Assembly (NCBI RefSeq): GCF_026571515.1
Contig: NW_026863843.1
Span: 310,001 to 374,000, forward strand
Source: Ruditapes philippinarum
Taxonomy: Eukaryota
Length of the DNA: 64,000 nucleotides
Reading direction: 5' to 3'
Below the pieces are notes generated by a model. The model searched no databases. It was given only the letters and a program-made list of their open reading frames with translations, and was not told the origin of the DNA. Each line of letters starts with the position of its first letter. The first letter of the stretch is position 1. Below are positions 5,160 through 64,000 of the stretch, one piece after another. The translations under genes and the position numbers were made by a program.

Positions 5160-6700
5160 CACCGTATCTAGTTTACAACAAACCCTGTCCTGATAGCAAC
5201 ACATCATGTCCTGATGACAACACACCATATCTTGTTAACAACAAGTCCTGTCCTGATGACAAAACAACATATCTTGTTCACAACAAACCCTGTCCTGATG
5301 ACAACACCCTGTCCTGATGACAACACAACCATGTCCTGATTACAACACACCCTGTCCTGATGACAACACCCTGTCCTGATGACAACACACCATATCTTGT
5401 TAACAACAAGTCATGTCCTGATGACAAAACAACATATCTTGTTCACAACAAACCATGTCCTGATAGCAACACACCATGTCTTGATGACAACACACCATGT
5501 CCTGGTGACAACACACCATGTCCTGATGACAACACAACATTTCTTGTTCACAAAAAAACTGATGACAACACAACCATGTCCTGATGACAACACACCATGT
5601 CCTGATGACAACACCCTGTCCTGATGACAACACACCATATCTTGTTACTAACAAGTCCTGTCCTGATGACAAAACAACATATCTTGTTCACAACAAACCA
5701 TGTCCTGATAGCAACACACTATGTCCTGATGACAACACACCATGTCCTGATGACAGCGCACTATGTCCTGATGACAACACAACATTTCTTGTTAACAAAA
5801 AACCTGATGACAACAGAACCATGTCCTGATTACAACACACCATGTCCTGATGACAACACACCATATCTTGTTAACAACAAGTCCTGTCATGATGACCAAA
5901 CAACATATCTTGTTCACAACAAACCATGTCCTGGTAGCAACACACCATGTCCTGATGACAACACACCATGTCCTGATGATAACACACCATGTCCTGATGA
6001 CAACACCCTGTCCTGATGACAACACACCATATCTTGTTACTAACAAGTCCTGTCCTGATGACCAAACAACATATCTTGTTCACAACAAACCATGTCCTGA
6101 TGACAACACACCTTGTCCTGATGACAACATACATTGTCCTGATGACAACACACCATGTCCTGATGACAATGCACTATGTCCTGATGACAACACAACATTT
6201 CTTGTTAACAACAAACCTGATGGCAACACAACCATGTCCTGACGACAACACACTGTCTCTTGTTAACATCAAGTCCTGTCCTGATTGCAACACACCATGT
6301 CCTGATGACAACACAACATTTCTTGTTCACAACAAACCCAGTCCTGATGACAACACACCATGTCCAGATAACAACACACCATGTCCTGATGACAACACAA
6401 CATTTCTTGTTCACAACAAACCCTGTCCTGATGACAACACACCATTTCTTGTTCACAACACACCATGTCCTGATAACAACACACCATGTCCTGATGACAA
6501 CACAACATATGTTGTTTACAATAAATCCTGTCCTGATGACAACACAACATTTCTTGTTCACAACAGACCCTGTCCTGATGGTAACAGACCATGTCCTGAT
6601 GACAACACACCATATATTGTTTACAACAAACCCTGTCTTGATGACAACACACCTTGTCCTGATGGTAACACACCATGTATTGATGACAACACAATCATTA
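5160..6700. repeat. Complex minisatellite: 21-bp core TGTCCTGATGACAACACACCA plus 39-bp variants
   Basis: Dozens of direct tandem copies, with degenerate copies back to about 4975. It generates overlapping repetitive ORFs on both strands. Confidence 0.97.
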
Positions 6701-13127: not shown

Positions 13128-14413
13128 TTAAGTATATATTATTATCTACATTTGTATCATTGTATCTAGGAAGTCAATATTAATATGTATGACAAGAGTT
13201 AATTTCCTAAGCGGAATCAACAAGCAATTTCCTACATGCAACAATATATTCAATTTCTCTCCAAAACTTTGATACATATATACTATAGATCAGGAACAAT
13301 TGTAACACAATCAAGTTTTCAAAACTTTTTGCTGCGTGTCACATTTGTATTTATTATAATTATACACATGAGCCAACAATGGGGTATATACCTGGCATGG
13401 CAAAAGGGGATCTGGGCACAGCACCCTCCCATTTCACACTTCCTGCCTGGTTACTACATGCATTATTTGTGTATTTATGTAAAGGACTCCGCATTTTTTT
13501 TATGTTATGCAATTTTCCTTAAATATCAAGTCTCATCAACTTAAACGAATATTTACAGCAACTTGATACATTTGTACAACAAGGAAAAAAACTTAGAGGA
13601 CTCAATTCAAACTTCAATTACCAGGAAATGGAAAACTCATTTAAAGCTCTGTATAAGCATATGTATAAGAACTACATGTAATGTACTACAAAAACCCCAT
13701 AGAGTAAGAAAAACCAACAATTAGTCTACTTTCGAAATTGTACCTGTGAAAATGATTGAATAATGCATTATGTAAGAAAACATAAAATTCATTATGTAGT
13801 TACACATCCTCAGGGCAATGCTGAAATGATCTTACCATCACTTCATGAAATATGTGTAAACAATAATAATTAGCAGGTACATTAAAATGTATTAATAAGA
13901 CACATGACATATTGACAGACTTAATGACAGATGGTGAATATATATATCAATATGGTTTATTTACAATGTAGTTTGCCAGCTGAAGATTTTATTATTGATT
14001 TATGTATCACTATGATCTTCTAAGGACATTTATTTAAATTATCATTCACAACCAAGGTACCCAAAGTCCAATATTCAGTGGTATCGTATGCATAATGATC
14101 TTAATTTTTAAAAAAAAAAACCTTTTGAAAATGTATATTAGCACCATTTCTTTAGGGTTAAATAGACTATCTACAATACATGAGACCTTCACAGTAATGC
14201 ATTTCAATTATTGTTAATATCAGAACATTGGAAATCTCTATACACATTGTACTTCAAGTTCAATGTTGTAACCACAAATTGGCTATCAACAATAAACCTG
14301 CATTATATCCTATGATAGCACAAAATAATAAAATACATTTAAATATCAAAAAGGAATATATTTCCATATTAATCTAACTAAATCTTATATTAAGAAAATA
14401 TGCAATGACATAC

Positions 14414-16990
14414 CTTTCCTTTTCTTGTCTTTTTGTATGGTGTTTTCTCAAAAGTGACTTCTGCACCATGAAATAGAAATGGGCAAGGTTTAATGATTGT
14501 TGGTATGTAGCCCTCTTGGTACTCACTCTCCTGTTTATCATCTGTTATACTTGATAAATCCAGCTTTGGCACATTTGTATCACTAACTGACTTGTCTGTT
14601 GCATTTATCTGATCTAAAGTTTTCCTTGGAGGTTTGCGTTTAGGCGGTTCTTTTCTCTTATTAGCTATCTTACTTGAATCAAACACCATTTTAGTAGCTG
14701 GTTGAGAAGTCTTTTTCTTTTGTCTGTTTAGAATGTCATCAATATTTGTTTTAGGTAACTGCGGTTCTTGTGAAGTTGGTAAAGGAGGCGCTGTATTACC
14801 CGGCTCAACATCAGAAATGTTGGAAGAACCGTTGCTAACTGGGCGTTCAGGTGCTTGTCGTTTACGCGGAATAGGTGATGGAGAAGAACCGTTTGCAAGA
14901 TGAACAGAAGAGGTTTTTAACTGATTCTGCTGATCAGGTTGAGTTTTTTTCAGGCGACTTGCAAGAAAAGATGACATTCCAGTCACAGGAGCCTCAGATT
15001 TCTCTCCTGAATTTTGAATAACTGGCTTCTCTACTTCATTCGCAATACTTTCAGCTTTTATAAAATTTTGCTCTTTTACTTTAAACTTTCTTGGTTTAGG
15101 TTTATTATCTTTTGCTTCAATAATATTTGGTTTTATTTCAGTTAATCCTTCACTTTTTCTTCCTTCCTGGTAAGTTTTGACAGGAGATATTTCCATAGGA
15201 ACTTCTTTTTCATTTTCATTGTTAGTTTTTGTGTCATCTATACTTTTTATCTCAATGGACACTGTTTTTGGCACATTATTTGATAAACTTTTATTTGATA
15301 CATCCCCATTTCTATTTTGTCCAACATCCCTATTCTTTTTCACCATATTATTGGAATCAAATATTTGTGTCTTCCTCGGAGAAATTTTCCCAGATTGTTT
15401 ACTAGAAGGTTTTATATTGGGCTCAACAGATACAGCTTCAGAAGCAACAGTCTCTGTCACTTCCTGTACATCACTTAAGGTCAAACTTTCTCTTTTCTTT
15501 TCCTGTTCCAATTCTTGCTGTTTTCGCTTGTCTGCTTCATGTTTAAGCTCAAGAGTATCTTTTGGGACTTGATGATGTTTTTTAGCAAGTACTGTAGGTT
15601 TCGACTTCTTTGGTTTTTCAGTTTTCTTAGAAACAGATTTAGAGTCAAAAACTTTTGACATGGGATGAACTGGTGTTAAAGTATGCTGAACACTGGGACT
15701 TAGTGGGCGTGTTGATGTTGTGTCAAGGTCTTTTTCAGAGTAACTGCTCCTATTTTGTGTCAGATTTGTGTCTGACTTCTTCCCCATATCTTCTGATCCT
15801 CTTCTTCTAAACATTTCTAGAGACTTTTGTAAGGATGTTGAAGTTGTGTCAACATTTTGTGCATAGTCTGTTGATGAACTATTCCTTGGAGAAGATAAAT
15901 TTGTGTCTAAATTGGATGAATTTCTAGGTGAATTTGACTTGCCTTGGTCTTTTAAAAGATTTATTTTTGATGTGTCATCAAAGACATTGTCATCATTCAT
16001 TTTTACAAGTGGTGAACGAGGGGTAGAAACAGGGGATGTTACTATTGGAGAATTTGTGTCAGATCCAGAAGATTTTCTTGGTGGCGAACTTTGACGCCAC
16101 ACACTTAATGAATCTGTAACTTTATTTGTTTTTTCAAATAAAGTCCTAAATTGAGAAACTGTGTTAGGTTTTGGTAATTCATTTTCATCATGAACACTTT
16201 CTTTTTCAACAAGTGGTTTCACTCTTCTAAAGCTATCTGAAAAGTCTTCATTTACATCACTTGATGATTTTATCTTCTCTTTCTTTGCAGGAATTGAGGA
16301 TTCCTTTGATTCTATAATTACTAAATTGTCCCTGCCAATTTTTTCCAAATCTGGAGCAACTTTCCAATCATGATGTTCCATCTTTGGAATAACAGTATCA
16401 GAATTAGAATTTCTTGAGTATAATTTCTTTCTGGAAGAGTCAGATGCGTTTTTCTTTGGCAAAGGAGGCTTAACACTGCGGATAACATTGTTTTGTTTCA
16501 GTATTTGAATCTCTTTCTTTTTGGCTGAAACAGACTTATTCGAATCTGTGCTTTCCAGGTCATAACTCCTAGGCCTGCCTTTTATTTGTGGTTTATAACC
16601 TACAGGTTTACGGAAATCTACCTTAGTGTTACTTTGTGAAACGGAAGAATCATCTCTTTGCCATGGAGGAAGTTTACTGACCGATTCTTTTGAGCTACTA
16701 CCAGATATACTCAAAAGATTTTCAACACTAGCAGACTTTCTTGAGAGTGTTACTTTGGTACTTTTATTCTCTAGCTGAGCAAACTTTGAGCGTAATTTGT
16801 TGACAAATCCTGAGTTAACATGGTACTCTTGTTCCGGATCATCGTCTCCTCTGTCACTACTTGCTGAACTTGGAATGGAGTACTCAGAATCTGCAGGCTC
16901 CTGACGAGCATTGTGTTGAGGCAATCCAAACTGGCGTATAAATGGATTGTTATGAACAGAAGACAGGTGTTCAACCTTGTCAGAACTCAT
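14414..16990 (-). CDS. Large coding exon (859 codons) of a taperin/phostensin (TPRN/PPP1R18)-like protein, C-terminal exons not found in window
   Basis: 2.6-kb open frame. First ATG at 16990 follows acceptor ttcagtttag (exon start 17019 or 17024), and the exon ends at phase-0 donor AAG|gtatgt at 14414. Motifs LSSVHNNPFIRQ, RDNLVIIE and terminal GAEVTFEKTPYKKTRKGK resemble recalled taperin/phostensin motifs. Coding status is near certain, family about 0.65. Confidence 0.8.
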
Positions 16991-17966
16991 TCTGTGATTG
17001 TCCAAGGTTGCAAAGGGACCTAAACTGAAACAAGAATTGATAAGTTAGATAATTATCACACAAAATTATTAGTCAAAAGAATCAGAAATATTTACATTTA
17101 TGTATGCAGGCAGGGGTTTTTCTTAACAACGGCGGGATGCAATCCTAACCTTTCAGGAGAAAAATAGAGTGCAAAAAAAAAAAAATTTAACAGGAATATA
17201 TTTACTCAAGGAGATTTGAATATATTTATAAATGGACTGGTTCTCAGATAAAAAATGAACATCTTAACATTTAAATTTTACATTAAAGAACATGAAATAT
17301 AAGGAAAACATTGCGGCATTGTGATTTTTTTTGTTAAGAGAAAAAGTTTCAGTCATAAAAATTTTATTTCTTGGGGAATTTTTAAGTATTTTATGAAGTT
17401 ATTAATAAAAATAATGGTCATTAAAAGATTTGACTTTTGTCAATTTTGATTTTGCTTGGGGCCATTTTAATTTTTTTGTTGTTCATTTGACTTGTTTTTA
17501 ACTTGGGGTGACTTATTTTAGCCCCATTTATGTGACCCCAGTATGATTAATGTATGTTTTAGTAATTTGCCTATATACATTTTGTATTAACTGTACTCAA
17601 TTAAGTTTTTTACAGCACTACATACAAATGTAATGCATCTATGTAACTTTGTATATTTTATGCAAATAACTTGACAACTAAACTAACTAATGCTTTACTA
17701 TTATTTGAATGTAACAGTCAATTAAGCAACCCGGGGCTCGAATCCTAGAATAGTAGGGACTTTGATTTTTGGATAACTATGGTAAATAATATTATAATCT
17801 GGGACTTAAAATGATGGGACATGCCCAGATATAATATGGTAAAATTATCTGCAATTCGAGTTGGGACTTTCATTTTAATATCCCATGCTTTTTTAAAAAC
17901 TTTTACAAAATGATTTTCTGTTAAAAAAGTATATATTCATAAATTGAGATTTCATATAATTATATG

Positions 17967-20230: not shown

Positions 20231-20605
20231 ATGCTAGGAACGAAAGCAGCAACGTCGATTGGTCCTGAAGGATGGAGGAATTCAACTTTGAAAGGGATAA
20301 AATTGTCACAAACAATAGTACAAAAAAGTGACAAAAATTGTGATATTGGACGTTCAATGGACCCACTCCCACAATTAAGGGATACAGTCGCCCAATTAAG
20401 CAACGAAGAAATTCACCGTTATACACGTGAAGTTAGAGGTGTTGTCGCAAAACTCAGAGAGAGTCTTTTGGAAACAAATGAAGAAATAAAATCACTTACT
20501 AGAGGTAAAGAACAATTGGAAAAGGCTTTAGAACATACCAGGAAAGACATTCAGTTGAACAAAGACAGTCAGGAAAATCGTCTTTCAAGGCCAACTAAAG
20601 AGAGG
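20231..20605 (+). CDS. TEKTL1: CCDC105/tektin-like 1, exon 1
   Basis: ATG at 20231, MLGTKAATSIGPEGWR...RLSRPTKER coiled coil, donor AGG|gtatgg phase 0. Confidence 0.9.
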
Positions 20606-23241: not shown

Positions 23242-23346
23242 GAACATGATGGTGCGGATGACTTGTTGAGTGCAGAAAGGTCACATCTTCTCAACTGTAA
23301 AAAAGCCCTGGAGGCTCAGCTGAAATCTGTACAGCAACAACTTCAT
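23242..23346 (+). CDS. TEKTL1: CCDC105/TEKTL1 exon 2
   Basis: tttcag|EHDGADDLLSAERSHL...QQQLH|gtagga, 105 nt. RP..E...D..D..L..E tektin-type motif spans the junction. Confidence 0.9.
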
Positions 23347-25086: not shown

Positions 25087-25455
25087 GTATTAGATCAGGC
25101 AAGGAAGAGGTTATTTAATGTTCTACAGGAGCGATCTAGAGTCCTTGACCTTTTGTGTCATGCTCTCTCATCCATTGCAAACAGTGCTAAACATAGTGCA
25201 CGTCTTTCCCGCAGCCGTACATCACTGGATGGACGACTCTCTCGATTTGGTCCATCTGTCACAGATCCTCTTGGATCTTATACACCAGAGACTGATCAAG
25301 CTTTGGCAGATGCATATGATGCTCGAAACAGGTCGGCATATCTCCGTAGAGAACTTAAAGATGCAATTGAAAGAACAGATAAACTCACCAAGGCTGCACA
25401 TAAATCTGTCAATGATGGAATGACACAGAAATTTTCAGAAACAGTTACATTAAAG
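25087..25455 (+). CDS. TEKTL1: CCDC105/TEKTL1 exon 3
   Basis: ttacag|VLDQARKRLFNVLQERSRVLDL...ETVTLK|gtagtt, 369 nt. Confidence 0.9.
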
Positions 25456-25672
25456 GTAGTTCATTAGTTATGTTTTATATCTTTTTATATGTTAACCTAT
25501 TTGCTGAATCATCATATTTTCAGAAAAATGAGTTTTCAGATTTAAAGTACAATCTATTTAAACACAAAAGGGTTAGGGGAAATCAGAATATACAATTTTT
25601 ATTTGTTATTTTTTCTATTAAACAACTTATGTTACGACTAAGGTGAATAATTGTTGTTATGAATGATTACAG

Positions 25673-25768
25673 CAACATTTGACAGTGAGCCACGGAGAGA
25701 ATAGACATGCGATACAGAGGGCACAAAGATGGTACGATGCTACAGATAGAGCTAGAGGTTACTCTATG
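25673..25768 (+). CDS. TEKTL1: CCDC105/TEKTL1 exon 4
   Basis: ttacag|QHLTVSHGENRHAIQRAQRWYDATDRARGYSM|gtaatt, 96 nt. Confidence 0.88.
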
Positions 25769-26236
25769 GTAATTTTTTAACACTTATATTCTTCATGTTT
25801 AGAATTACCTTTATTAATGAATGGTTATTCTTGATATGATAGATTGATCCATCAAATATTTTATGAATTGTATGTTAAGCCTACTTTTAAAGTATAGATT
25901 TTCACCAAATAAGGCTCATGAATTAAGGGTAAGAATTTAGTGCTTATTTATAAAAGATGTATGCAGCTCATGTCTTTTCTGTGTAATTACATGATGCTGT
26001 AAAAGTTGTTTTTTTTCATTATTCAAGTTCATTTTATAACATTAAGCTATTCAAAGTACAACATAAAAGTTTGTTTGCTTGGTAAATCTTTTACCAACAA
26101 CTTCATGAGAGATATTACAGCTTTGAAAATTGTCTGTTATTATTTATGTTCATGAATAAAATGTTACTTATTGAACATGTTAAATAAGTGTTGTGAGATA
26201 AACTGTGTAAGGTTAAATTTCAGAGATAGCTGTTTA

Positions 26237-26523
26237 TCATATTTTGATTGTATATGTTTCTATAGGGCCCAGTTATGAGTGCTGACTTGTCATATTTTGA
26301 TTGTATATATTTCTATAGGGCTCAGTTATGAGTGCTGACTTATCATATTTTGATTGTACATGTTTCTATAGGGCCCAGTTATGAGTGCTGACTTGTCATA
26401 TTTTGATTGACTTATCATATTTTGATTGTATACGATTCTATAGGGCCCAGTTATGAGTGCTGACTTATCATATTTTGATTGTATATGTTTCTATAGGGCC
26501 CAGTTATGAGTGCTGACTTGTCA
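26237..26523 (+). repeat. Five tandem 53-bp copies of the intron 4 acceptor plus first ~27 nt of exon 5
   Basis: Unit TCATATTTTGATTGTATATGTTTCTATAG|GGCCCAGTTATGAGTGCTGACTTR, with AGs ending at 26265, 26318, 26371, 26443 and 26496. Confidence 0.97.
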
Positions 26524-26610
26524 ACAAGAGAGAGGCTTGACCGGCCAATGGTACGAGTGTTCCAGCGTCATCCAGGCACACAGTTACCTGAGGCACAGCA
26601 AATCATCGAG
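26497..26610 (+). CDS. TEKTL1: CCDC105/TEKTL1 exon 5
   Basis: [38 protein letters not shown]|gtaatt matches the recalled CCDC105 motif RExLDRPxVRxxQRHxGTQLPEA. Confidence 0.92.
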
Positions 26611-27102
26611 GTAATTTTCTTCACTTAAGATAGGCAACAAAAATTACTATTAATGAAGATAATAAAGAAATGATTATTGAAGATGTAATAACTGTTGAAA
26701 AATGCTCTAGTTACCTTTTAGCTGGACTAAAGATATTAAGCTATCCTACTCACCCAATCCTCACTGATTTCAGATTAAAGATTAACTGTTGATGTTTTTT
26801 TTATTTAGTTTGATTTATTTCAACAGTTATTCCTTTTCATGATCACATCACAAATAAAAATCTTCATCACAGAACTTTAAAGGATGATTCTCAATTTATT
26901 GAAATCTGTTTAATAACTTAAGGGATTTTCTTGAAGCTTTCATCATTTACACCACATTTGTAATGTGCATGAAATATTTGGTAGTTTTTTCCCAGATCTT
27001 ATAATAATGATTTGAAAAATTATGCTCAAACTGTAATTCATGGTTTGATATTGCAGTAAAGTGTTTATTTGTTTCTGTAAGTTTGTGTGATAAACATTAC
27101 AG

Positions 27103-27288
27103 GGTGGAGATGGATTATTACAATCACTTACTGCCACAAGTAGAAACATTGGTCTTCTTAAACTAGCCAGTCTACGCCTTGATGATGATATACGAAGCAA
27201 GAGTGCGGCCGCATCAATTGATGGTGGTATTATACGCCTCCGTAGACGCAAGTCTGATCACAGATGGACTCTCGGTGCTGCGTTCTAG
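27103..27288 (+). CDS. TEKTL1: CCDC105/TEKTL1 exon 6 (terminal)
   Basis: ttacag|GGDGLLQSL...IDGGIIRLRRRKSDHRWTLGAAF* (TAG), giving a 414-aa protein with all five introns in phase 0. Confidence 0.9.
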   Translation, partial: GGDGLLQSLTATSRNIGLLKLASLRLDDDIRSKSAAASIDGGIIRLRRRKSDHRWTLGAAF

Positions 27289-29659
27289 CAGTATAGGCAA
27301 CTCTGAAAAAACTTTTTTTGTATTATAAAACAAGTATTATATTGTTATCTTGCACTTGATGAAATCAAAATGTGGTTGTTTTTATACATTTCATGTGAAT
27401 CTGCACGCTTTCTGCATTAAATATTTATAGAGGTAATACGGTTGTATCAGTATTTTCTATTTTGTGATAAATTTTAAGCTTTTGATATCAGTATTACATG
27501 TTAAAGTTATAAATTAAGAAATGACGGGCATATATACTTTATACTGTAGTAGTATTATTGAGGCTGGAGGCACAATGAAAAGAACAGGTGGTTAAGATGT
27601 TTATATTTGACTTTGTTTCTTGTCAATGGTGGAAGGGTTTGTGATGCAAGTATTTTAATATAGATCTGATTTGTCAATTTTACAATTTGTTTATCATTGC
27701 ATGATCTGTTTATCATTGCATGATTTGTTTATCATTGATTAGTTTATCATTTAGGAATCATATCTGTGATCATTTTTAAATTGTGCTCATTTTTTCATAG
27801 ATGACTTTACACTTGTGCATTACTATAATATACTACAACTATACTTCTATCAGTTGAGAGGGAATAATCTAATCATTTACATTCAGACACCAGCTAGTAG
27901 TACACTGCAAAATATGTAATGAAATTCTCCATTTTTTTCTAATGCCAAAACAAATATGTTATGAAAAGTCAAAACTTTAAAAGAAAATAGTTATATTTAA
28001 CCACATACAATTTTTACATGTAAATATAAAAGTGTTATTAAAATTGATTAAGGTTACATGCACTGTCTGGTATTATTTATGTAGAAGTTATGTAATGATT
28101 ACATTACAGTATTTTTTTCCACAATGCAGTATTATTTATTTATTTGGATACACTTACTCCACATGTCTATAATATACATGATTATTTATTCAGAAGCTTA
28201 ATCAGTTACTACTGTAGCTCTCAGTAGTTTATTTATACATATAGGTTATACAACGTGAACAATGTTTATCGGTTATAATGTGACAGTACTTCATTAACTA
28301 AAACATTGTTACAGTGGAAGCATAGTATGTTGAATAAGGAGGAAAGAAATATCTTCTCATACTTTGATTGTTCAATCATGAATTTATTGCCTATCAATTT
28401 GTTCATCTATATATACATGTATTTTAATCTGAATATTTATTCAGTGCTCAATATAAAAATTAAAGTGCAGTTAGATTAAAAAAGAGCTCAGAAATTATCA
28501 ATCATATGTAAACAGTATAAAATATATGCACATATAAATAGATTTAATCATCTTTCTATAGATAATGTCAACTTATTTGAAATCAGCCACATTTTTTACT
28601 GTAAAACACACAAAAGTATGTAAAACACACAAAAGTATATTAACTGTCACACACTATATTTAAAATTTAGTCCATTAAATTAGAGTTGCAAATAATAAGA
28701 TACAAAGAAGCTAGTCATGTACATTAATCTGTTTGTTAATATCTAGGAATAACACACTTGTACATTATATCACAGTTAAATTGTCCCAGTATCATTGACA
28801 TGGGCTAATTAACACATTTCTGTGTGTTGTTGGAAATAAGCTAGAATATTTTCACATTTATGTTTCGTTTCAATACAAATGTAAAAGATTCTAGCATTTT
28901 TGATACCCAACTGACTGACCTTTATCTGTCAGAGGTCACAAAGGACCCAACAAATGTCAAGGACATCAATTATTGATTGGAAAACAGTCAATGTTGAAAA
29001 GGCAATGTAACAGTGATATAATTGTATTGTGCTGTAAATTTAAACAATTAACAATATAATCACTGCTCTGTACAAAGTTTAGATAGGCTACATTAAGGTA
29101 TTACATATATATAACTATACTAACTTTTTCTACAAACTAATGTTATAACATTATTACACCATTGAGGTATTACATTTTTTCTGTCAGTATTAGCTCACCG
29201 TTGACAAGGGTAGTATACAGTTTATCTTTAAACAATATACATGTACATGTATTCAACTGGGATTTCCAGTCTGTTTATAAAAGAGGAGAAACATATATTA
29301 GTACATTCTAGCTTATGATTTATTTAGAATGTAGATTTTATATCCTCATCAACAATTTGTTAACATAATTTATGTAAATTGGTTGTTTTACAACTTCATT
29401 TTCTATATTCTCAAAAAACAAGTCTATATTGGCTGTTACTGGAATGATTTAACAAATATGTTAAGTTTCTGAGGACTATGTCAAAGAGAAATTTTTTATC
29501 GTTGTTACATATTTTGTTGTTGTTTTTGTTGTTGATGATTTTTTGCACCAAGTTTATAAACAAACTGTCTGTGATACACACTCTATGCTTTATGTATTTT
29601 ATTAAGCAATCAACATTTATATAACATACCGGTACCATTGTCTGGTATTTATAAATTAA

Positions 29660-31748: not shown

Positions 31749-33622
31749 ACTAGAACTATCACTAAATGTGATTAATACCCCCACAAGTCTGCTTCGGAAA
31801 TGAGGATGTTACTAGTAACAGAATACCTTGTAATAGAATTGAAACATAGAGTTATGGTTGTGGGCAATTAAAGATAATTGTGGTTCATGTATGTTATTTC
31901 CTTTCAATGTGGTTGGCCATTGATGAAGTTTAATTGAATTACTCTGTAATAAGTCCAGAAAGACAAAGAAAAAGAACAAAGGGCAATAACTCTATAAATA
32001 CTGAAGATAGAGTTATAGTTCTTGTGCACTGCACTTCCTCTTATTGTGCTTGACCATTGTATGAAGTTGTACTGAATTCCAAACAGTATTTTTCAAGTTA
32101 TGCTCTGGACAAGGAAAAGTAACAAAGGGCAATAACTTTGTAATTAGTCAAGATGGAGTTATGGTTCTTGTGCACTGCACTTCCCCTTATTGTGCTTGAC
32201 CATTGTATGAAGTTGTTTTGAATTCCAACCAGTAGTTTTCAAGTCATGCTCTGGACAAGGAAAAGTAACAAAGGGCAGTAACTCTGTAATTAGTCAAGAT
32301 GGAGTTATGGTTCTTATGCACTGCACTTCCTCTCAATGTGCTTGACCATTGTATGAAGTTATAATGAATTCCAACAATAAGTCTTCAAGTTATGGTCTGG
32401 ACAAAAGAAAGCAATGGAAAAGTAACAAAGGGCAATAACTATGTAATTAGTCAAGATGGAGTTATGGTTCTTGAGCACTGCACTTCCTCTCATTGTGCTT
32501 GGCCATTGTATGAAGCTGTTTTGAATTCCAACCAGTAGTTTTAAAGTCATGCTCTGGACAAGGAAAAGAAACAAAGGGCAGTTACTCTGTAATAAGTCAA
32601 AATGGAGTTATGGTTCTTGTGCACTGCACTTCCTCTCAATGTGCTGGACCATTGTATGAAGTTATAATGAATTGCAACAATTAGTCTTCAAGTTATGGTC
32701 CGGACAAAAGAAAGCAATGGAAAAGTAATAAAGGGCAATAACTGTGTAATTACTTTAGATAGAGTTATGGTTCTTATGCACTGCACTTCCTCTCAATGTG
32801 CTTGACCATTGTATGTAGTTATATTGAATTCCAACCATTAGTCTTCAAGTTATGGTCGGGACAAAAAAAAAAAAAGGCAATGGAAAAGCAACAAAGGGCA
32901 ATAACTCTGTAATTACTTTAGATAGAGTTATGGTTCTTGTGCACTGCACTTCCCCTTATTGTGTTTGACAATTGTATGAAGTTGTTTTGAATTCCAACCA
33001 GTAGTTTTCAAGTTATGCCACGGACAAGGAAACGTAACAAAGGGCAATAACTCTGTAATTAGTCAAGATAGAGTTATGTTTCTTACGCACTGCACTTCCT
33101 CTCAATGTGCTTGACCATTGTATGTAGTTATATTGAATTCTAACCATTAGTCTTCAAGTTATGCTCCGGACAAGGAAAATGCAACGGACAAAAAAAAAAG
33201 CAATGGAAAAGCAACAAAGGGCAATAACTATGTAATTACTTTAGATAGAGTTATGGTTCTTGTGCACTGCACTTCCCCTTATTGTGTTTGACAATTGTAT
33301 GAAGTTGTTTTGAATTCCAACCAGTAGTTTTCAAGTTATGCCCCGGACAAGGAAAAGTAACAAAGGGCAATAACTCTGTAATTAGTCAAGATAGAGTTAT
33401 GGTTCTTGTGCACTGCACTTCCTCTCAATGTGCTTGACTATTGTATGTAGTTATATTGAATTCCAACCAGTAGTTTTCAAGTTATGCTCCGGACAAGGAA
33501 AATGCAACGGACGTCTGGACCGACCGACAGACCGACCGCCCGACCGACCAACCGACCGACCGACCGACCGACCACCGGGTGACTCCTATATACCCCCCCA
33601 AACTTCGTTTTTGGGGGTATAA
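31749..33622 (+). mobile_element. Satellite-carrying non-autonomous element (pearl/DTC84/Helentron-associated type) with about 10 monomers of ~146-177 bp
   Basis: Head AATACCCCC, tandem monomers AAGGGCAATAACTCTG...GAGTTATGGTTCTTGTGCACTGCAC, (GACC)n microsatellite at about 33517-33573, terminal hairpin ATACCCCC...GGGGGTAT. Confidence 0.85.
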
Positions 33623-34788: not shown

Positions 34789-35101
34789 AATCACTGTTTC
34801 TCTAGAACATACCTAAATCACTGTTTCACTAGAACATACCTCAATCACTGTTTCTCTAGGACATACCTAAATCACTGTTTCTCTAGAACATACCTAAATC
34901 ACTGTTTCTCTAGAACATACCTCAATCACTGTTTCTCTAGAACATACCTCAATCACTGTTTCTCTAGAACATACCTCAATCACTGTTTCTCTAGAACATA
35001 CCTAAATCACTGTTTCACTAGAACATACCTCAATCACTGTTTCTCTAGGACATACCTAAATCACTGTTTCTCTAGAACATACCTAAATCACTGTTTCTCT
35101 A
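34789..35101. repeat. 27-bp minisatellite, about 11.5 copies
   Basis: Unit AATCACTGTTTCTCTAGAACATACCT(A/C). Confidence 0.97.
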
Positions 35102-36299
35102 AACAATACAAATAAGAGACAGACTTGAACACAGTTCATAGTTGTTTTATTTATTTCATATATCTTATACATCATTCATGCTACACAACATAAACTTGAA
35201 ATGTAAGAATAATAATTTATAACAATAAAATCATATTGCAACAAAAAATCATATCAACTGTAAATGTCACTTATCTACCTACACTGATATTCATAAAACA
35301 TTTGACACTAAATAAAATATACATACAAAGCTTTGGAAAGTGGTGCACATGAGTTACTTAACTTGTATTTCTTATTTTTGCAATAAATTTGAGAAATATG
35401 CCTGTTTCTAGTTTTTCCAATTCATGATATGATATCTACTTGTTAAAAATATTATATTTGTCTACTGCAGCATACCATTTGTAAAAGTTGTTATCTCTTG
35501 CTACAATATTTTATAATTCTTTCCAAAAATGTATCATAAAAATATAAATTTTCACCTTCTTATAAGTTTCAGATTTAATGAAAATCAAATGAAAATGTTA
35601 TAACGCATCTCATAGATGCATATGCCCCTGTAGAAATCATATCAATTAATATACATGTAGGTAAGTGACATATTTAACTTTTCCTATGGACATTTTGTTT
35701 TATCTGTGGTTAAAAATAACCATGATAGAAACAAATATGGCTTAATTTTTATGCCAAGATCTTTATAAATGCCAATTCAAACTGTAAGGATGCCAAGTTA
35801 CTAAAGTTATAATTTCTTTCTTTTGATTACAGTGTAGAGTTTTCCAGCACACCATTAAAATGCTGACAACCAGATGACTTTGAACAAGTTTACCATTTGT
35901 TCAAATGAACAACATATATTATATAGTGATGCCATAGAACTGTGCAATAATAAACCTAATAATGGTTAATTCTGGGATAAAAACACAATAAGAAATATAC
36001 ATAAAAGAAAATAATTTAAACATATTGTACATACACATTGTTGAATACACAAATTAATTTCAAACTAATACATATAGTCATTCAGTCGTAAACACTCAAT
36101 CTACATTATAAGCTAACCACAGTATGTGTTTTTTTAAGTTTATTTGCTGTGAAACAAGAAATTTTATAGATTTTTTTTACTCGGACATTGCTGTAAGTAA
36201 AAATATGTCTTTCTAATTCTTTTGATAGAAATATGTTAAGTTGTAGACTATCAAATATATTAGAAATTTCACTGCTGAGATGCATAGAAACAATATACT

Positions 36300-41342: not shown

Positions 41343-42450
41343 GAACAAGCAAATTCGTTGAATTTATATCCCCCGCCGAGTACTGGTTATTATTAACACA
41401 ACAACTGAAGACATAAGGCTTTATTTATATATTAATCATGGCATAAACTGTAAAATTCTTTGAACTTGAAGCCTTGTACCTTCAAACAAGAAGAGATTTT
41501 AAGTTTTCACTATATACATATAAGGAAAATCTATGACCCCCTGGAGTGGGGCCAATTTTGACCCCAGGGCTAAAATTTGAACAATTTTGGCAGAAGACCT
41601 AAATGTTATATCATATACCAAATATCAAAGCTCTAGGCCTTGTACTGTCAGACAAGATTTTTTAATTTTGCATTTTTGAAACTCCTTTTCTGGCCCCGTG
41701 TGACTGATGATTGTGATTGAAAATTACAAAATTTTACTAAGTCAAGGGCAATAACTCTAAAAATACTAAAAATATCTAGACGAAAATACCCAGGTGCACA
41801 ACTGCACATGCTGATCAACATTCCCATAAAGTTTCGTTGAATTCTAGCCATTAGTTGCAGAGAACTACTCTGGAAACGAAATTCGGACAAAATTTTACTA
41901 AGTCAAGGGCAATAACTCTAAAATTACTAAAAATATCCAGACGAAAATACCCAGGTGCACAACTACACATACTGATCAACATTCCTGTAAAGTTTCATGA
42001 CTCTAGGTCAAATACTTTTTGAGTTACATGCGACACAAGTTGAAAATTACAAAATTTTACTAAGTCAAGGGCAATAACTCTAAAAATACTAAAAATATCC
42101 AGACGAAAATACCCAGGTGCACAACTTCACATGCTGATCAACATTCCCATAAAGTTTCGTTGAATTCCAGCCATTAGTTGCAGAGAACTACTCCGGAAAC
42201 GAAATTCTAAGTCAAGGGCAATAACTCTAAAAATACTAAAAATATCCAGACGAAAATACCCAGGTGCACAACTTCACATGCTGATCAACATTCCCATAAA
42301 GTTTCATTGAATTCCAGCCATTAGTTGCAGAGAACTACTCCAGAAACGAAATTCGGACGGACGGATGGACGGACGGACGGACAGACGGACGGACGGAAGG
42401 ACAACGCCAAAACTATATCCCCCTCCCGATTCCATCAGCGGGGGATAACA
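41343..42450 (+). mobile_element. Second family of satellite-carrying non-autonomous element, about 4 monomers plus (GGAC)n
   Basis: Head AACAAGCAAATTC...TATATCCCCCGCC, repeats CTAAGTCAAGGGCAATAACTCTAAAAATAC..., (GGAC)n at 42355-42402, terminal TATCCCCC...GGGGGATA hairpin. Confidence 0.85.
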
Positions 42451-42506
42451 AAAAACAAAATTTAAATACAAAATTATATCTTATTATTAATCTATTGATT
42501 ACAAAC

Positions 42507-42594
42507 CATTTTCATCAGCAAATTGTTTAGCTTCCTCATATGTAACATCTCTTTGTGCTTCTAAATCTGACTTGTTCCCAATCAAAAATATTAC
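42507..42594 (-). CDS. RAB14: Rab14 coding exon 5 (G4 box NKSD)
   Basis: [29 protein letters not shown]. Confidence 0.95.
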
Positions 42595-42681
42595 CTAAAA
42601 TCAACAAATAAATCAACTGTTGACATTCTGATATTGATGTCATGCAATGGAAATATTATATATGTATATCATTTAAAACTC

Positions 42682-43628
42682 CAGCTATCAATATATGTGA
42701 TAAATTCCCCCGCAAGACTGCTTCAGAAATGAGGAAGTCACTAGTAAAAGAATAACTTGTATAATTTAAATAGAGTTATAGTTGGCGGCAAATAAAGATA
42801 GTTGTAGTTCTTTTATGTTGCATTTCCTTCCCCTGTGGTTGACCATTGATGAAGTTTTATTGAATTACTCTGTAATAAGTCCAGATAGAGTTACGGTTCT
42901 TCAGCACTGCACTTTCTCTCATTGCGCTTTTTGACCATTGTATGAAGTTGCATTGAATTCCAAACATTAGTTTACAAGTTATGCACTGGACAAGAAAAAG
43001 TAACAAAGGGAAATAAATATGTAATTAGTCCAAATAGAGCTATGGTTCTTGCGCATTGCACTTCATCTTACTTCGCTTTACCATTGTATGAAGTTGTACT
43101 GAATTCCTAACATTAGTTTTGTTTTCAAGTAATGCACTGGACAAAAAAAAGTTACAAGGGCAATAACTATGTAATTAGTCCAAATAGAGTTATGGTTCTT
43201 GGGCACTGCACTTCATTTCACTGCGCTTGACCATTGTATTAAGTTGCAATGAATTCCAACTAGTTATGCTCCAGACAAGGAAAATGCAATGAAAAAGTAA
43301 CAAAGGAAAACAACTCTATAATTACTTAAGATAGAGTTATGGACCATGTGCACTGCATGTCCTCTTATTGTGCTTGAACATTGTATGAAGTTGGTTTGAA
43401 TTCCAACCAGTACTTTTCAAGTTATGCTCTGGACATGGAAAAGTATCAAAGGGCAATAAATTTGTAATTAGTTTAAATAGAGTTATGGTTCTTGCGCACT
43501 GCACTTCCTCTCAATGTGCTTGGCCATTGTATGAAGTTGTATTGTATTCCAACCATTAGTCTTCAAGTTATGCTCTGGACAAAACACAATGGAAAAGTAA
43601 CAAACTGCAATAAATCTGTAATTACTTA
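42682..43628 (+). mobile_element. Older, 3'-truncated copy of the 31749-33622 satellite element
   Basis: Same head (CCCCCGCAAGACTGCTTCAGAAATGAGG) and 5-6 diverged monomers. Confidence 0.85.
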
Positions 43629-44866: not shown

Positions 44867-45773
<907 letters not shown>

Positions 45774-51773: not shown

Positions 51774-52212
51774 GCCGGGATCCGGGACGCCCGGGATCCG
51801 GGATCGTATAAGATAATAGAAGAAAATACTAATAAACTATATATGTGTTGATAATAGTCGTAATGAAAGGCCATTAAACGTTAAGTTTTTTTTTATTGTA
51901 TGTAATGAAAGTTAAATTGATTTAACTTAGGATATAGATATATTTAGAGCTATTTATTAACAAAATCACAATACTTATAATTATATGCCTAATTAATTGG
52001 AAAAATCAAAGACTATATTCTTGAATTGGTCAAATCCCGGGATCCCTATATGTTTTAATACGATCCCAGCTTTTCTGAAAACAATATTCTTGAACTGTCC
52101 AATTCCTGGGATCTCTTTATTTTTTAATATGATCCCGGCTTTTCTGAAAACTATATTCTTAAACTGGTCAATTTCCGGGATCCTATTTTTTTAATAGGAT
52201 CCCGGCTTTTCT
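51774..52212. repeat. CCGGGATCC-rich repeats including about three ~63-bp tandem units
   Basis: Repeated AAACTATATTCTTGAA..GGTCAA..CCGGGATCC..GATCCCGGCTTTT, probably subterminal repeats of a DNA transposon. Confidence 0.7.
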
Positions 52213-53467
52213 GGCTGAATTGATTGACAACTTGTGTTTACTTTAGAACTATTATAGAAGTCGGTGTAAAAAGCTCATCAGAGCTTATGTTTATTGTTGA
52301 TGTATCCGACTTGTAAATAAAATTTACTTGACTTGACTTGTATTTGTCACTTATTCCAATACTAAATAACATATTACAACTTAACTTCGTATAAAGAGAC
52401 ATTTTTATGAATTCTACTTATCTATTTTTTTCTGGTCAAGGTCAACAGGCCATATAGTAAATGTGCATAGACATAGGGACTTCATTCTATCTGTTTACAT
52501 GCATCTTCATATATACTCATATTCCTCTTTGTTAAACTGAGAGAACTGGCTTCCTTAACTTTATATGTCACTTTTATTTTGATGTTCGCTGAAGTCTTTT
52601 CAGCTAACAGAACTGTCATTTTTACATTTAAACACGCCCCTGGAAAGAAATTACGAAGCGAGTCGCTACTAGCTTTTTTAAAAGCTAACCTTGTTTGATC
52701 TATGTTATAGGCCTAATCACAATACTGTTTGATATTTTACGACAACAATGAAATATTTGAATTTATGTCTTTCTTTCAATTTCATGTGTGAGATGTCAAT
52801 ATTCAAGTTGCGGACTATGGACGACCATTTATAAAAGTTTCTTTTATTGTTTTGTCATTTCATTGTTTACTTTATTTTTTTTATATAAATCTGAGAGAAT
52901 GAGATACATTTGCAATACCTATTTTCCCCGACAAAATCATCATCGATTGATACAGCAAAGACTATCTGGAATCATGGGAATACGCGTATTATCATTTGTA
53001 AATTTGCTTAAAGGTATAATCATATTTAAAAAAAAAAACATTGAGAAAGGATGGTCCCTCGAAAGCATTAATTTTATCATACCAAAATAACATGAAAATT
53101 GCAGACTCGGTTTGATTGAATCTGTACAAGTGGGTTAATGAAAAGTGCAACATTCCTCACGCCCGTCTTAAAACATGCAATTGATTTTGTTAAGTTTTGT
53201 TGAGTTTATAACTTTATATTATAATTATACATAGGTGTATAGGTATATAGGTGATATCTTGCATACATGATACATGTATATGTTTTTACATCAGAGGTGA
53301 ATTACGCATCATCCACCAGTATATGTATTATAAAGATTCGTCAGTAATAATAAAAAGAAGAGCCACTGGTGAATACTAGTATCCAATATATTTTTGACAA
53401 TCTTTTGTTTCATTAATAATTTACGACAGAATTTTACTCATCTGTAGTATCCATACAATATATGATG

Positions 53468-55205
53468 GACACTGTTATGTCGTACTATGATCCGAATAAA
53501 GAACTCGAACTCACCGTTGATGCAAGTGGTGTAGGAGTCGCTGGAATATTGAGCCAGGATAATAAGATATAGAGGATTTTCATGTTTTTTCTATAAATAC
53601 ATGATTTATTTTCATCGAGTGGTATGAAAATAAATATTTCATGAGTGGCGGTAGCCACGAGTGAAATATGATAATTTTCATGCCACAAGATGAAAATAAA
53701 TCATGCATTTATAGAAAAAACTTGAATTTTCTGTTTATTATATACATTTTTCTTTTTTTTTTTGCGATAAAATTTGAAAGACTTTCCATTAAATTTTGTG
53801 TACTGGCAGAATTTAAAAGAAAGTAGTTTTGCGAGACACCAGTGAAAATACGGAAAATATGTTTCACTGCAGTGAAAAATAAATTTTTACAGTGAAAATA
53901 CGGAAAATGAAAATATGCATTTTATTTCATCAATATTTCTCAATATTTCATTTATAAGTATATAATAAAATAGCTTACTCAAGCAATTAAAGATTTGACA
54001 CCAGTTCAACAACGTTATTCTCAGTCAGAAAGAGAATGCTATGGACTCGTTGTGTCGAATGTATCTGTATGGAAAACCGTTCAAACTGATTACAGATGCC
54101 AAGTGTCTTTGAAGCAATCTTCAATCATCCAAAATCGAATCAGCCACTGAGATTCGAAAGGTGGAGACTTCGACTTGTAGATTATGATTTCCATGTACAG
54201 TACAAGAAAGGTTCTGAAAACCCTGCAGATTTTATGAGTCGACATCCTCTTGAAAATACAGCAGAAGAAGACACTATTCAGTCAATTTTAGCTGAACAAT
54301 ACGTGCAATTTGTATCTGAATGTGCCGTACCCAAAGCTATGACGTTAAATGAAATAGCATCCGCGACAACAGAAGATAAATTGTTGCCTACAGTGATAGA
54401 ATCTGTTAAAACAAATAAATGGAATAAAGAAATGCGCAAGAAAAACAAAAACTATGAACTTTTCTTCAGAATTCAGTGGTCCATATTGGACACCATACAG
54501 TTCTTTTAAGTGGCACCTAAAAACATGCATCAGAAGGTCATTGACATTGCCCACGAGTCACATAGCGGATTAGTGAAAACAAAACAATTGTTTATTTTAC
54601 GCGAAAAAGTTTGGTTAACTCTTATTGAATACAGTGAAATCTTGTATGACTTGTATAAGCATTGATCCACGAAATACAACAGAACCAATGAAGTTGTGCA
54701 GCCTACCAACACGAATTTGGGATGAAATCAGCGTTGATTTCTATGGACCCATTCCAAACTCACACGTATATCTTATGGTAGTGATTGATGACTACAATAA
54801 GTATCCGTTTGTAGAAACATTGCAAAATATTACAGCCGCAACAGTCATACCGAGGCAGAGAAATATTTTCTCTATGTTTGGGACAGTATCAGTTGTAAGA
54901 ACCGATAACGGATCTCCATTCCAAGGACGCGAATTTGCCAATTTCGCCTCAAAAATGGGATGTAAACACAGATTACATCCTGAAGCAAATGGAATCGCAG
55001 AACGTTTCATGAAAACGCTGACAAAAAGTGTTCTTGCTTCACATGTTCAAGAAAGAACTCAATACGTTCCTAATGAATTATCGTTCCGTTCCACATAGTA
55101 GTACCGTTGTTCCGCCAAGTACTTGAATGTTTGGTAGAAATATTCACACCAAGTGACCAGAATTTCGACCAAAGAAACCAGACAAATACGTATACTAAGA
55201 ACACG
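53468..55205 (+). pseudogene. Decayed Ty3/Gypsy pol (RNase H and integrase)
   Basis: Motifs YDPNKELELTVDAS, YSQSERE, RWRLRLVDYDF, NPADFMSR, SVDFYGP, TDNGSPF and HPEANGIAERF, broken by frameshifts, stops and an insertion. Confidence 0.93.
53566..53968. mobile_element. Hairpin-bearing non-autonomous element inserted in the Gypsy RNase H (Crypton-like, tentative)
   Basis: Splits GILSQD from IAYSS, with ATAATAA on both sides and a ~150-bp internal fold-back at about 53580-53730. Confidence 0.8.
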
Positions 55206-61952: not shown

Positions 61953-62226
61953 TTAAACCACAAAATTTGGGTAATAGTCCTCTTCTTGTATGTCAGGAGA
62001 AGGATGTCGTCTGCCACAGGCTCCTGCAGGTTTCGTTAACCTCTTCAGAATCTTACGCATGGTTTTCCGGGATACTGGGTCACGTGGTGATTCGATGTCT
62101 TGCAGACCTTGTTCATACTCAGTGAAAACTCGTCGGTAATGACCACATCCTCGAGGATTGGATTTTGACCCAGGTGTCTGAGTTAATCTAGCGACCACCT
62201 CGTCTACATAACTTTTGTCAGCTACC
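61953..62226 (-). CDS. Uncharacterised 170-aa protein, exon 2 (terminal)
   Basis: Acceptor gtgttttttatgtttaag, in phase with exon 1, VADKSYVDEVVARLTQ...YYPNFVV*. GC-rich block, with AATAAA overlapping the stop. Confidence 0.72.
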
Positions 62227-62548
62227 CTTAAACATAAAAAACACGAAAACTGTTACACGTTTCATCGTCATCGTAAAAAGTTTAAATATTGTTTTTTAAT
62301 TGCAATTATATTCCATATAACCACCAAGTTATTTAATTATATGCATCTATTCGTTGGAATATTGATGATAGTCATACGTCACGTGACTCATGTACCATTT
62401 GAAATTGAATTAACAAAAGCTAAACTCGTACATGATGTATAGTATATTGCCTCATTAAAGTTATGATGAATTGTTATCACAATACAATCAACATTATTTA
62501 AGGTAAAATTGATGGAATTCTCGCAAAGGTCAAAGACAATCAACTCAC

Positions 62549-62787
62549 CTGAATGCAGGAGCCCGTGGTACGTCGATATCAAATTCTGGCACAAACTCCA
62601 TATTAGGGTTTCTTTTCCTTTCCCTACGTTTTTTAAAACGATCGCTTGCCTCAATTTCTAATGCCAGTAGCTCTGGTCTATATAACTTTTGTCTAGGCGT
62701 GTTTTTGTGCATGGTTTTCTCGCGAGTCGTGTATAAGTGATTAATGTTTTTATCCTGGAGATAGCCATACGTTATGTTAAAAGACAT
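62549..62787 (-). CDS. Uncharacterised 170-aa protein, exon 1
   Basis: ATG at 62787, MSFNITYGY...PRAPAF(R), consensus donor AG|gtgagt in phase 2. Confidence 0.72.
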
Positions 62788-64000
62788 GATTAAATAGTAA
62801 ATGTTACAATACACCACCAATTAACTCATTTATTACATATTGATCCTTTTTATCCCACTTTTTCACTTTTCTGAAATAAATTTGTCAAATACACTTTTAA
62901 ATTTATTGCATAAAATACTTTCACGATAAATTTGCAAATCAAACAATTATGAAATTTCAAGACGTTTTATGCCCCCACTCAAAGATCTAGAGTGCCCTTA
63001 ATCCTTCTCTATTCACGTAAAGCCGAAGTTCTGTCCTTTCGTGACATCACTTGATAATTTACAATTGAAAGTTTGTAGTTTGAGAGGCATTTAATGATTT
63101 TTCATTTAAAAAATATACAAATAAATCTTAAACACTCTTTATACAACAAAGTTAATAGATATAACTACATGTACATCAAGTTCTTCATTTTATTTTTTAT
63201 TGTATTGTTAATGATAAATGCAGAAAAGAAAATAAATAATTCAAGAATCTTTCATCTTATATCCAAAACATCACAACAGTTAGAGTAGCAAATGTTACTG
63301 AAGAAAAATTAAAGCCACATAATCGTAATCAAACTATAAAATACGTCCTGAAGTCTTTAAAAGATTATCAAAAGTGATAGACCTCTTAGATCAAATCTAT
63401 TTGTTCTGAGTGAAAGTTTTGAACTTTGTAAGGACAGTATGTTTACTTTATCTTTAAAATCATGTCTGGATATCGCAATGCATTCAGAAGTTTGTACATT
63501 CAGCAACTAGCTGTATTTACGGACCAATTCAACCCTGGTTTTTCAATTAAAACGTCTTCACCATTAACTGTATAAACAGTATTGAAATTTCCATATCTAT
63601 ATGAATAGTAATCTTCTATTAGAGTAAGAACGATTAATATTTGAATGTTTACTACTTGATGTACAAATGACCTTACAACTTTTATAATAATTCCTATACA
63701 ATCTGATGCAGAACTCATTCGCTGTATGTTTAATGTTAATACTTTATACAGTCGTGATTAAAATACCGATTTTAGATTTTAAATTGCATATTAATATCAT
63801 TAAATCATAACACTTGGGGTTGGTATAAAACTGTTATATTTCAGTATCAAATGTGGGCGGAGCTAACCGTTTTGCATCAAGGCAACAAGTCATGGTGTAC
63901 CGCTATATATCAACAGATTAATTCTGTAACATAAACTTGTTTTATAAACTGTCTTTTAAACTTCTTTCATGAACTATATAATTAATTAATTATTTTATGA

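Follow-up and report, generated by a model that had tools for sequence, protein, structure and literature searches.

How does a transcript that carries five nearly identical 3′ splice sites in a row come to be spliced at one of them, and does such an array act on the gene that bears it or is it merely tolerated? This question is raised by the intron 4/exon 5 boundary of a gene of the clam Ruditapes philippinarum, which we analyzed in a window of 64,000 nt (assembly GCF_026571515.1, contig NW_026863843.1, positions 310,001 to 374,000 of the forward strand); all positions below are those of the window.

The host gene and its repeated intron-exon boundary

The gene has six coding exons on the + strand, encodes a protein of 414 aa, and all of its introns are GT..AG and in phase 0. 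Matches to the Pfam Tektin domain are clear on exon 1 (20231..20605, 125 codons, E 9.4e-9) and exon 3 (25087..25455, E 7e-6), weak on exon 2 (23242..23346, whose product is that of the RefSeq protein) and on exon 6 (27103..27288, coding part including the stop codon), and absent from exon 4 (25673..25768) and exon 5 (26497..26610, 114 nt). Exon 4, which ends at the donor ATG/GTAATT (25768/25769), and exon 6 are supported by both the gene model and an RNA contig, which also displays the 3′ joint of exon 3. Exon 3, used as a protein query, retrieved 44 proteins; most of those that bear a name are molluscan CCDC105 or tektin-like protein 1. Over all 414 aa, the product equals RefSeq XP_060564195.1, annotated in Ruditapes philippinarum as “tektin-like protein 1 isoform X1,” and its best match among solved structures is CCDC105 (PDB 8SNB, E 1e-141), while a tektin reached only E 2e-4. 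Judged by its Tektin domain and best match, the host gene is TEKTL1/CCDC105 rather than a tektin. In the cited parts of its literature, CCDC105 is described as a protein that forms filaments inside the doublet microtubules of sperm (PDB 8SNB, 8OTZ and 8I7O; PMC12551952), a role that the clam product, given its match to the 8SNB chain, may share.

The boundary between intron 4 and exon 5 is present as five head-to-tail copies of a 53-bp unit made of 29 intron and 24 exon bases, with acceptor AGs that end at 26265, 26318, 26371, 26443 and 26496 (spacing 53, 53, 72 and 53). On the + strand, units 1 (26237..26289), 2 (26290..26342) and 3 (26343..26395) are followed by a 19-bp insert (26396..26414), which TRF and the unit alignment identify as a secondary duplication within the array, then by unit 4 (26415..26467) and by the intron part of unit 5 (26468..26496), which runs into exon 5 itself. 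Compared from −28 to +24 around each AG (53 positions), the units differ pairwise at 0–4 positions; relative to unit 5, units 2, 3 and 4 carry 3, 1 and 3 differences, respectively. No difference separates copies 1 and 5 over the 59 nt that surround the AG, of which 32 are intron and 27 exon bases, and the first 27 exon bases are common to copies 1, 3 and 5, after which exon 5 continues into a unique, purine-rich body. The splice signal is kept in 5/5 copies, the intron part always ending in CTATAG. The original prediction of five tandem near-identical acceptors, one copy having a 19-bp insert, is thus borne out in its coordinates, in its 53-bp unit and in the similarity of the copies. A chance repeat is excluded by the TRF scores of the array (318, 211 and 440) and by a 28-nt unit pattern that matches the 1.4-Gb genome five times, always in the array, as against 0 matches for the reversed control. 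A second locus or haplotig carrying the unit was considered and rejected: a DNA search of the same genome gave one match, at the array itself.

The copies differ in what they would encode. Joining donor 25768 to AG 26265, 26318 or 26443 gives 336-aa products that end in YRAQL before the stop, joining it to AG 26371 gives a 327-aa product that ends in SYFD, and AG 26496 is the only acceptor of the five that gives the full product of 414 aa. The frame read from AG 26265 agrees with that of the true exon 5, 231 nt further on, but a stop codon lies between them. On retranslation, the translations and stops previously given for all acceptors proved correct, as did the claim that AG 26496 alone preserves TEKTL1. 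As a rule, a premature stop is expected to trigger NMD when it lies more than about 50–55 nt upstream of the last junction. Between the premature stops of the four upstream acceptors and the last exon junction there are 279, 226, 200 and 101 nt, always more than that limit, so that, by stop position, messages spliced there would be candidates for NMD.

Local tandem duplication is common in the window. Arrays of a 146-bp satellite-like unit, presumably akin to bivalve MITE-linked satellites, occupy 31962–33512 and 41898–43582 and are followed by GACC/CGGA microsatellites, and other minisatellites, with units of 21, 27, 39 and 69 bp, lie at 5175–6693, 34789–35105, 45035–45773 and 52015–52213; by eye, their borders include no obvious exon start. 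On the − strand, 14390–17044 holds an 884-codon stop-free frame of low complexity, rich in Ser and Lys and with no Pfam match, which we take to be one exceptionally long exon, its gene likely lying head-to-head with TEKTL1. Further downstream are a broken retrotransposon pol remnant (54090–55098, + strand; integrase core PF00665, E 9e-14) and two short − strand frames of 99 and 91 codons (61953–62820), which look as if they were coding exons of a further gene and have no Pfam match.

Acceptor use and acceptor choice

The spliced message that we observed uses the last acceptor, AG 26496. An RNA contig of 740 nt from sample X15 (depth 11.1) carries exons 3–6 unbroken, with three GT..AG joints that include 25768 to 26497; this join creates two unique 31-mers, so the assembly can resolve it. 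The joint comes from one RNA contig of one run, and contigs drop rare branches, so exclusive use of the last acceptor is not implied. Logan contigs are a further source of recorded proteins, one of them exactly the 414-aa product and another a 413/414 variant. Both the RNA contig joint and these Logan-sourced full-length proteins represent regular mRNA made from the authentic site.

RefSeq nonetheless holds a second form, isoform X2 (XP_060564196.1, 336 aa), whose sequence agrees with the AG 26265 product at every residue (0 mismatches). The proposal that the last of the five acceptors is the one chosen agrees with the one RNA contig, and the annotated X2 speaks against it. Among the 14/14 members of its cluster, the 336-aa form has NCBI annotation as its sole source and no Logan source, and a weak search among short proteins for the read-through tail gave one candidate, with an unrelated tail. 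Because copies 1, 3 and 5 have their first 27 exon bases in common, short reads are ambiguous at this junction: an estimated 15–33% of junction reads of 150–75 nt cannot be assigned among AG 26265, 26371 and 26496. A mapping artefact is accordingly the more likely source of X2, with real leakage possible, and annotated isoforms at such repeats call for caution, as they may be artefacts of read mapping.

As to what singles out the last copy, the five acceptors are alike, with a pyrimidine share of 0.60–0.65 and TTGAT at −18, and since they are equal in sequence, the selector must sit in the downstream context. Two other candidates were rejected. RNA structure leaves the AGs without a clear difference in accessibility (0.38–0.65 unpaired, 0.51 in the last copy), and a branch-point gain, namely the CTGAC or TTGAC that copies 2–5 owe to duplicated exon sequence at −33, might put copy 1 at a disadvantage but cannot set copy 5 apart from copies 2–4. 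Downstream, between +25 and +60, the purine share is 0.64 after the last AG vs 0.36–0.42 after the others, and the T share is 0.14 vs 0.42–0.56, the others being followed by T-rich repeat. The exon 5 donor lies 114 nt from the last AG and 167–345 nt from the others, and the introns that flank exon 5 measure 728 and 492 nt. With its purine-rich body, its donor 114 nt off and flanking introns longer than 250 nt, the last AG may be chosen by exon definition aided by exon-body enhancers, and we infer that this combination is the likely selector. In human data, the cited part of PMC9225289 reports an overall preference for upstream 3′ sites, which exon-definition architecture with long flanking introns only reduces, so exon definition alone is no demonstrated cause. 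That copy 1 equals copy 5 over 59 nt places the determinant of spliceosome choice outside the acceptor, which makes the array useful as test material.

Copy number, origin and significance of the array

Three further samples bear on the array. In raw 150-nt reads of two of them, the array is covered over about 150 nt, or about three units, at an identity of at least 92% (about one read in X22 and about two in X23). These libraries are labelled RNA-seq, and we considered and rejected them as RNA: among 25 reads of X22 and 40 of X23, intron cover equals exon cover, splice joints are absent and 40–57% of the reads are chimeric. The loose ends of X23 lie at GATC sites in 4/4 cases; in three, the printed letters complete GATCGATC, which we take to be the Hi-C junction motif, and in one of these three they do so via a C>T variant at 26541. 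Both libraries look like ligated genomic DNA of the Hi-C kind and, owing to this behaviour, were used as DNA evidence only. Over 25300–27400, their RNA-seq label would mislead users who treat the reads as RNA.

In the third sample, X15, the array is represented by a contig of about 82 nt, as long as a single 53-bp unit should be when collapsed at k=31 (53+30), and two of its bases form a combination that none of the window's units has. Its depth is 71.4, compared with 4.35–6.2 for intron contigs (11.5–16.4x) and 11.1 for the contig of the mRNA; such depth does not amount to a copy number, and X15 may be a pooled sample. These depths hint at an allele in X15 that is longer and more uniform, of about 6–7 units if all the exon depth also ran through the array and about 12–16 otherwise; part of the depth of 71.4 could also be array-containing RNA.

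The unit is flanked by a near-match, GCTG-TTTATCA on the intron side and GCTGACTTGTCA on the exon side, and at the joints between units TTGTCA alternates with TTATCA. From this flanking near-match and these alternating joints, we infer an origin by slippage or unequal exchange, seeded at the flanking microhomology; the array would then have expanded, with the 19-bp insert arising as a small secondary duplication. Any message mis-spliced to an upstream copy would be an NMD candidate or encode a truncated protein, presumably at a small cost. The array is a real minisatellite of the type termed “mirage,” with the last acceptor used in the message seen, and in our assessment it is quite probably tolerated, slippage having produced it without its serving to control the gene.

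A message loss without a selected role is the alternative that survives best, although we regard it as unlikely. The array would leak, the first, donor-nearest acceptor being used to a measurable extent, longer alleles losing more TEKTL1 message, and the effect being mildly harmful or neutral. The exact agreement of X2 with the AG 26265 product speaks for such leakage, as do the 59-nt identity of copies 1 and 5, the general preference for upstream 3′ sites reported in the cited part of the human study (PMC9225289), and the depth of the collapsed unit contig relative to the intron contigs, which suggests longer alleles or array-containing RNA. Against it, the share of junction reads that cannot be assigned is large enough for tie-breaking to create the X2 model, and the 336-aa form lacks both a Logan source and, in the weak search, a short fragment bearing its tail. 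A stronger version, in which the array is a length-polymorphic acceptor VNTR of about 5 to more than 10 identical 3′ splice sites, its first copy is really used and copy number sets the loss of TEKTL1 message, seems improbable to us. If it were true, the clam, a broadcast spawner, would offer a graded set of natural alleles with which to study how 3′ splice sites compete, and possibly sperm motility as well.

The original prediction had also raised the idea of a copy-number-tunable sink. In its selected form, this would be a poison element that sets the dose of a sperm axoneme protein via NMD. In its favour, each of the four upstream acceptors brings in a stop more than 100 nt ahead of the last junction, and the depth of X15 hints at variation in length. 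Early stops arise by default, however, when a duplicated boundary includes intron sequence, a like structure occurs in unrelated amphioxus genes (cited part of PMC3087553), and loss of mouse Ccdc105 is reported, in the cited part of PMC12551952, to have no obvious reproductive effect. Beyond X2, which short-read ambiguity can explain, and the hint of longer alleles, we found no positive evidence for the sink and consider it very unlikely.

Equally doubtful is a reading of the array as a snapshot of intron gain or intron sliding. A hypothetical route from mirage to intron is in print (PMC3087553, legend of Fig. 7, the part cited here), and on paper 15 stop-free two-step routes lead through GT words in the array. 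Against this, the unit lacks AGGT, the sole AGGT within 26230–26612 being the real donor of exon 5, and none of the 9 distinct routes examined restores the normal exon, all of them needing micro-exons of 6–59 nt with poor donors. Moreover, 36 residues separate two anchors across the junction in 53/54 full-length homologs, a comparison of 54/58 proteins of at least 300 aa that takes in the clam's own two and leaves out the 336-aa isoform and three short ones. The spacing is unchanged in these 53, and the present sequence lends the snapshot idea no support. One Mytilus gene model differs, with 46 residues, the extra ones being unrelated. The sequence of a Mytilus galloprovincialis model (P0025) ceases to follow all other homologs precisely where exon 4 joins exon 5, which suggests that the intron position is shared and that the model is mis-called there.

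Assemblies are error-prone at short tandem repeats, and short reads leave the exact count of five to the assembly alone, but the units are set apart by specific substitutions, single 150-nt reads of two other samples cross about three of them and a third sample has a unit contig of circular size (82 nt), so that, exact count aside, the array is not an assembly error, a reading to which we give hardly any credence.

Relation to known repeated splice sites

The reading that we prefer, a tolerated minisatellite, places the clam array beside the mirages of amphioxus, a name and a precedent that the original prediction does not mention and which are described in the cited parts of two reports for Adh3 and the globins BflGb6 and BflGb9 (PMC3087553) and for troponin C and PGBD5 (PMC3902484), with a reported unit range of 10–160 bp (PMC3087553). 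As far as the cited parts of these reports go, the two resemble each other in repeating the end of an intron together with the start of the exon in tandem, as a minisatellite would, with intact AGs (unit of 53 bp in the clam), in giving normal mRNA from the authentic last copy, and in the turnover of their units. They differ in that the clam array lies in a bivalve gene, keeps its AG in all five copies and has a RefSeq isoform for its first copy; variation of length among haplotypes is only hinted at in the clam. Somatic instability is a feature of the amphioxus Adh3 case. Four mirage features are found in the clam: head-to-tail repeats that span the boundary, a unit of minisatellite size, a kept AG and a regular mRNA. 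Mirages would further be expected to yield no aberrant transcripts from their extra copies; in the clam, X2 corresponds to the product of such a copy, though the reads at this junction are ambiguous. A literature search that covered only a minority of subscription papers found no earlier paper on a bivalve minisatellite at a splice site.

In the human CBS gene, a base change linked to the upstream copy of a duplicated junction has a silencer role. The duplication itself, c.844_845ins68, spans 68 bp of an intron/exon junction and, according to the cited part of PMC2630376, favours the distal site and yields normal mRNA, as the clam array does. CBS has two copies and the linked base change in the upstream one, while the clam has five copies, the first of them unchanged within 59 nt. 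A further parallel is the gain of introns through tandem copying of an AG/GT proto-splice site, in which, in the cited part of PMC2891723, exon sequence with AGGT is duplicated and a new intron is made. In both cases a stretch that holds a splice signal was duplicated locally and in tandem; in the clam, it is an existing acceptor that was copied, with no AGGT and no new intron. By these comparisons, the TEKTL1 array belongs with the mirages on the four features named, is likely a tolerated repeat for which lancelets and humans offer precedents, and extends the kind to a bivalve sperm-tail gene.
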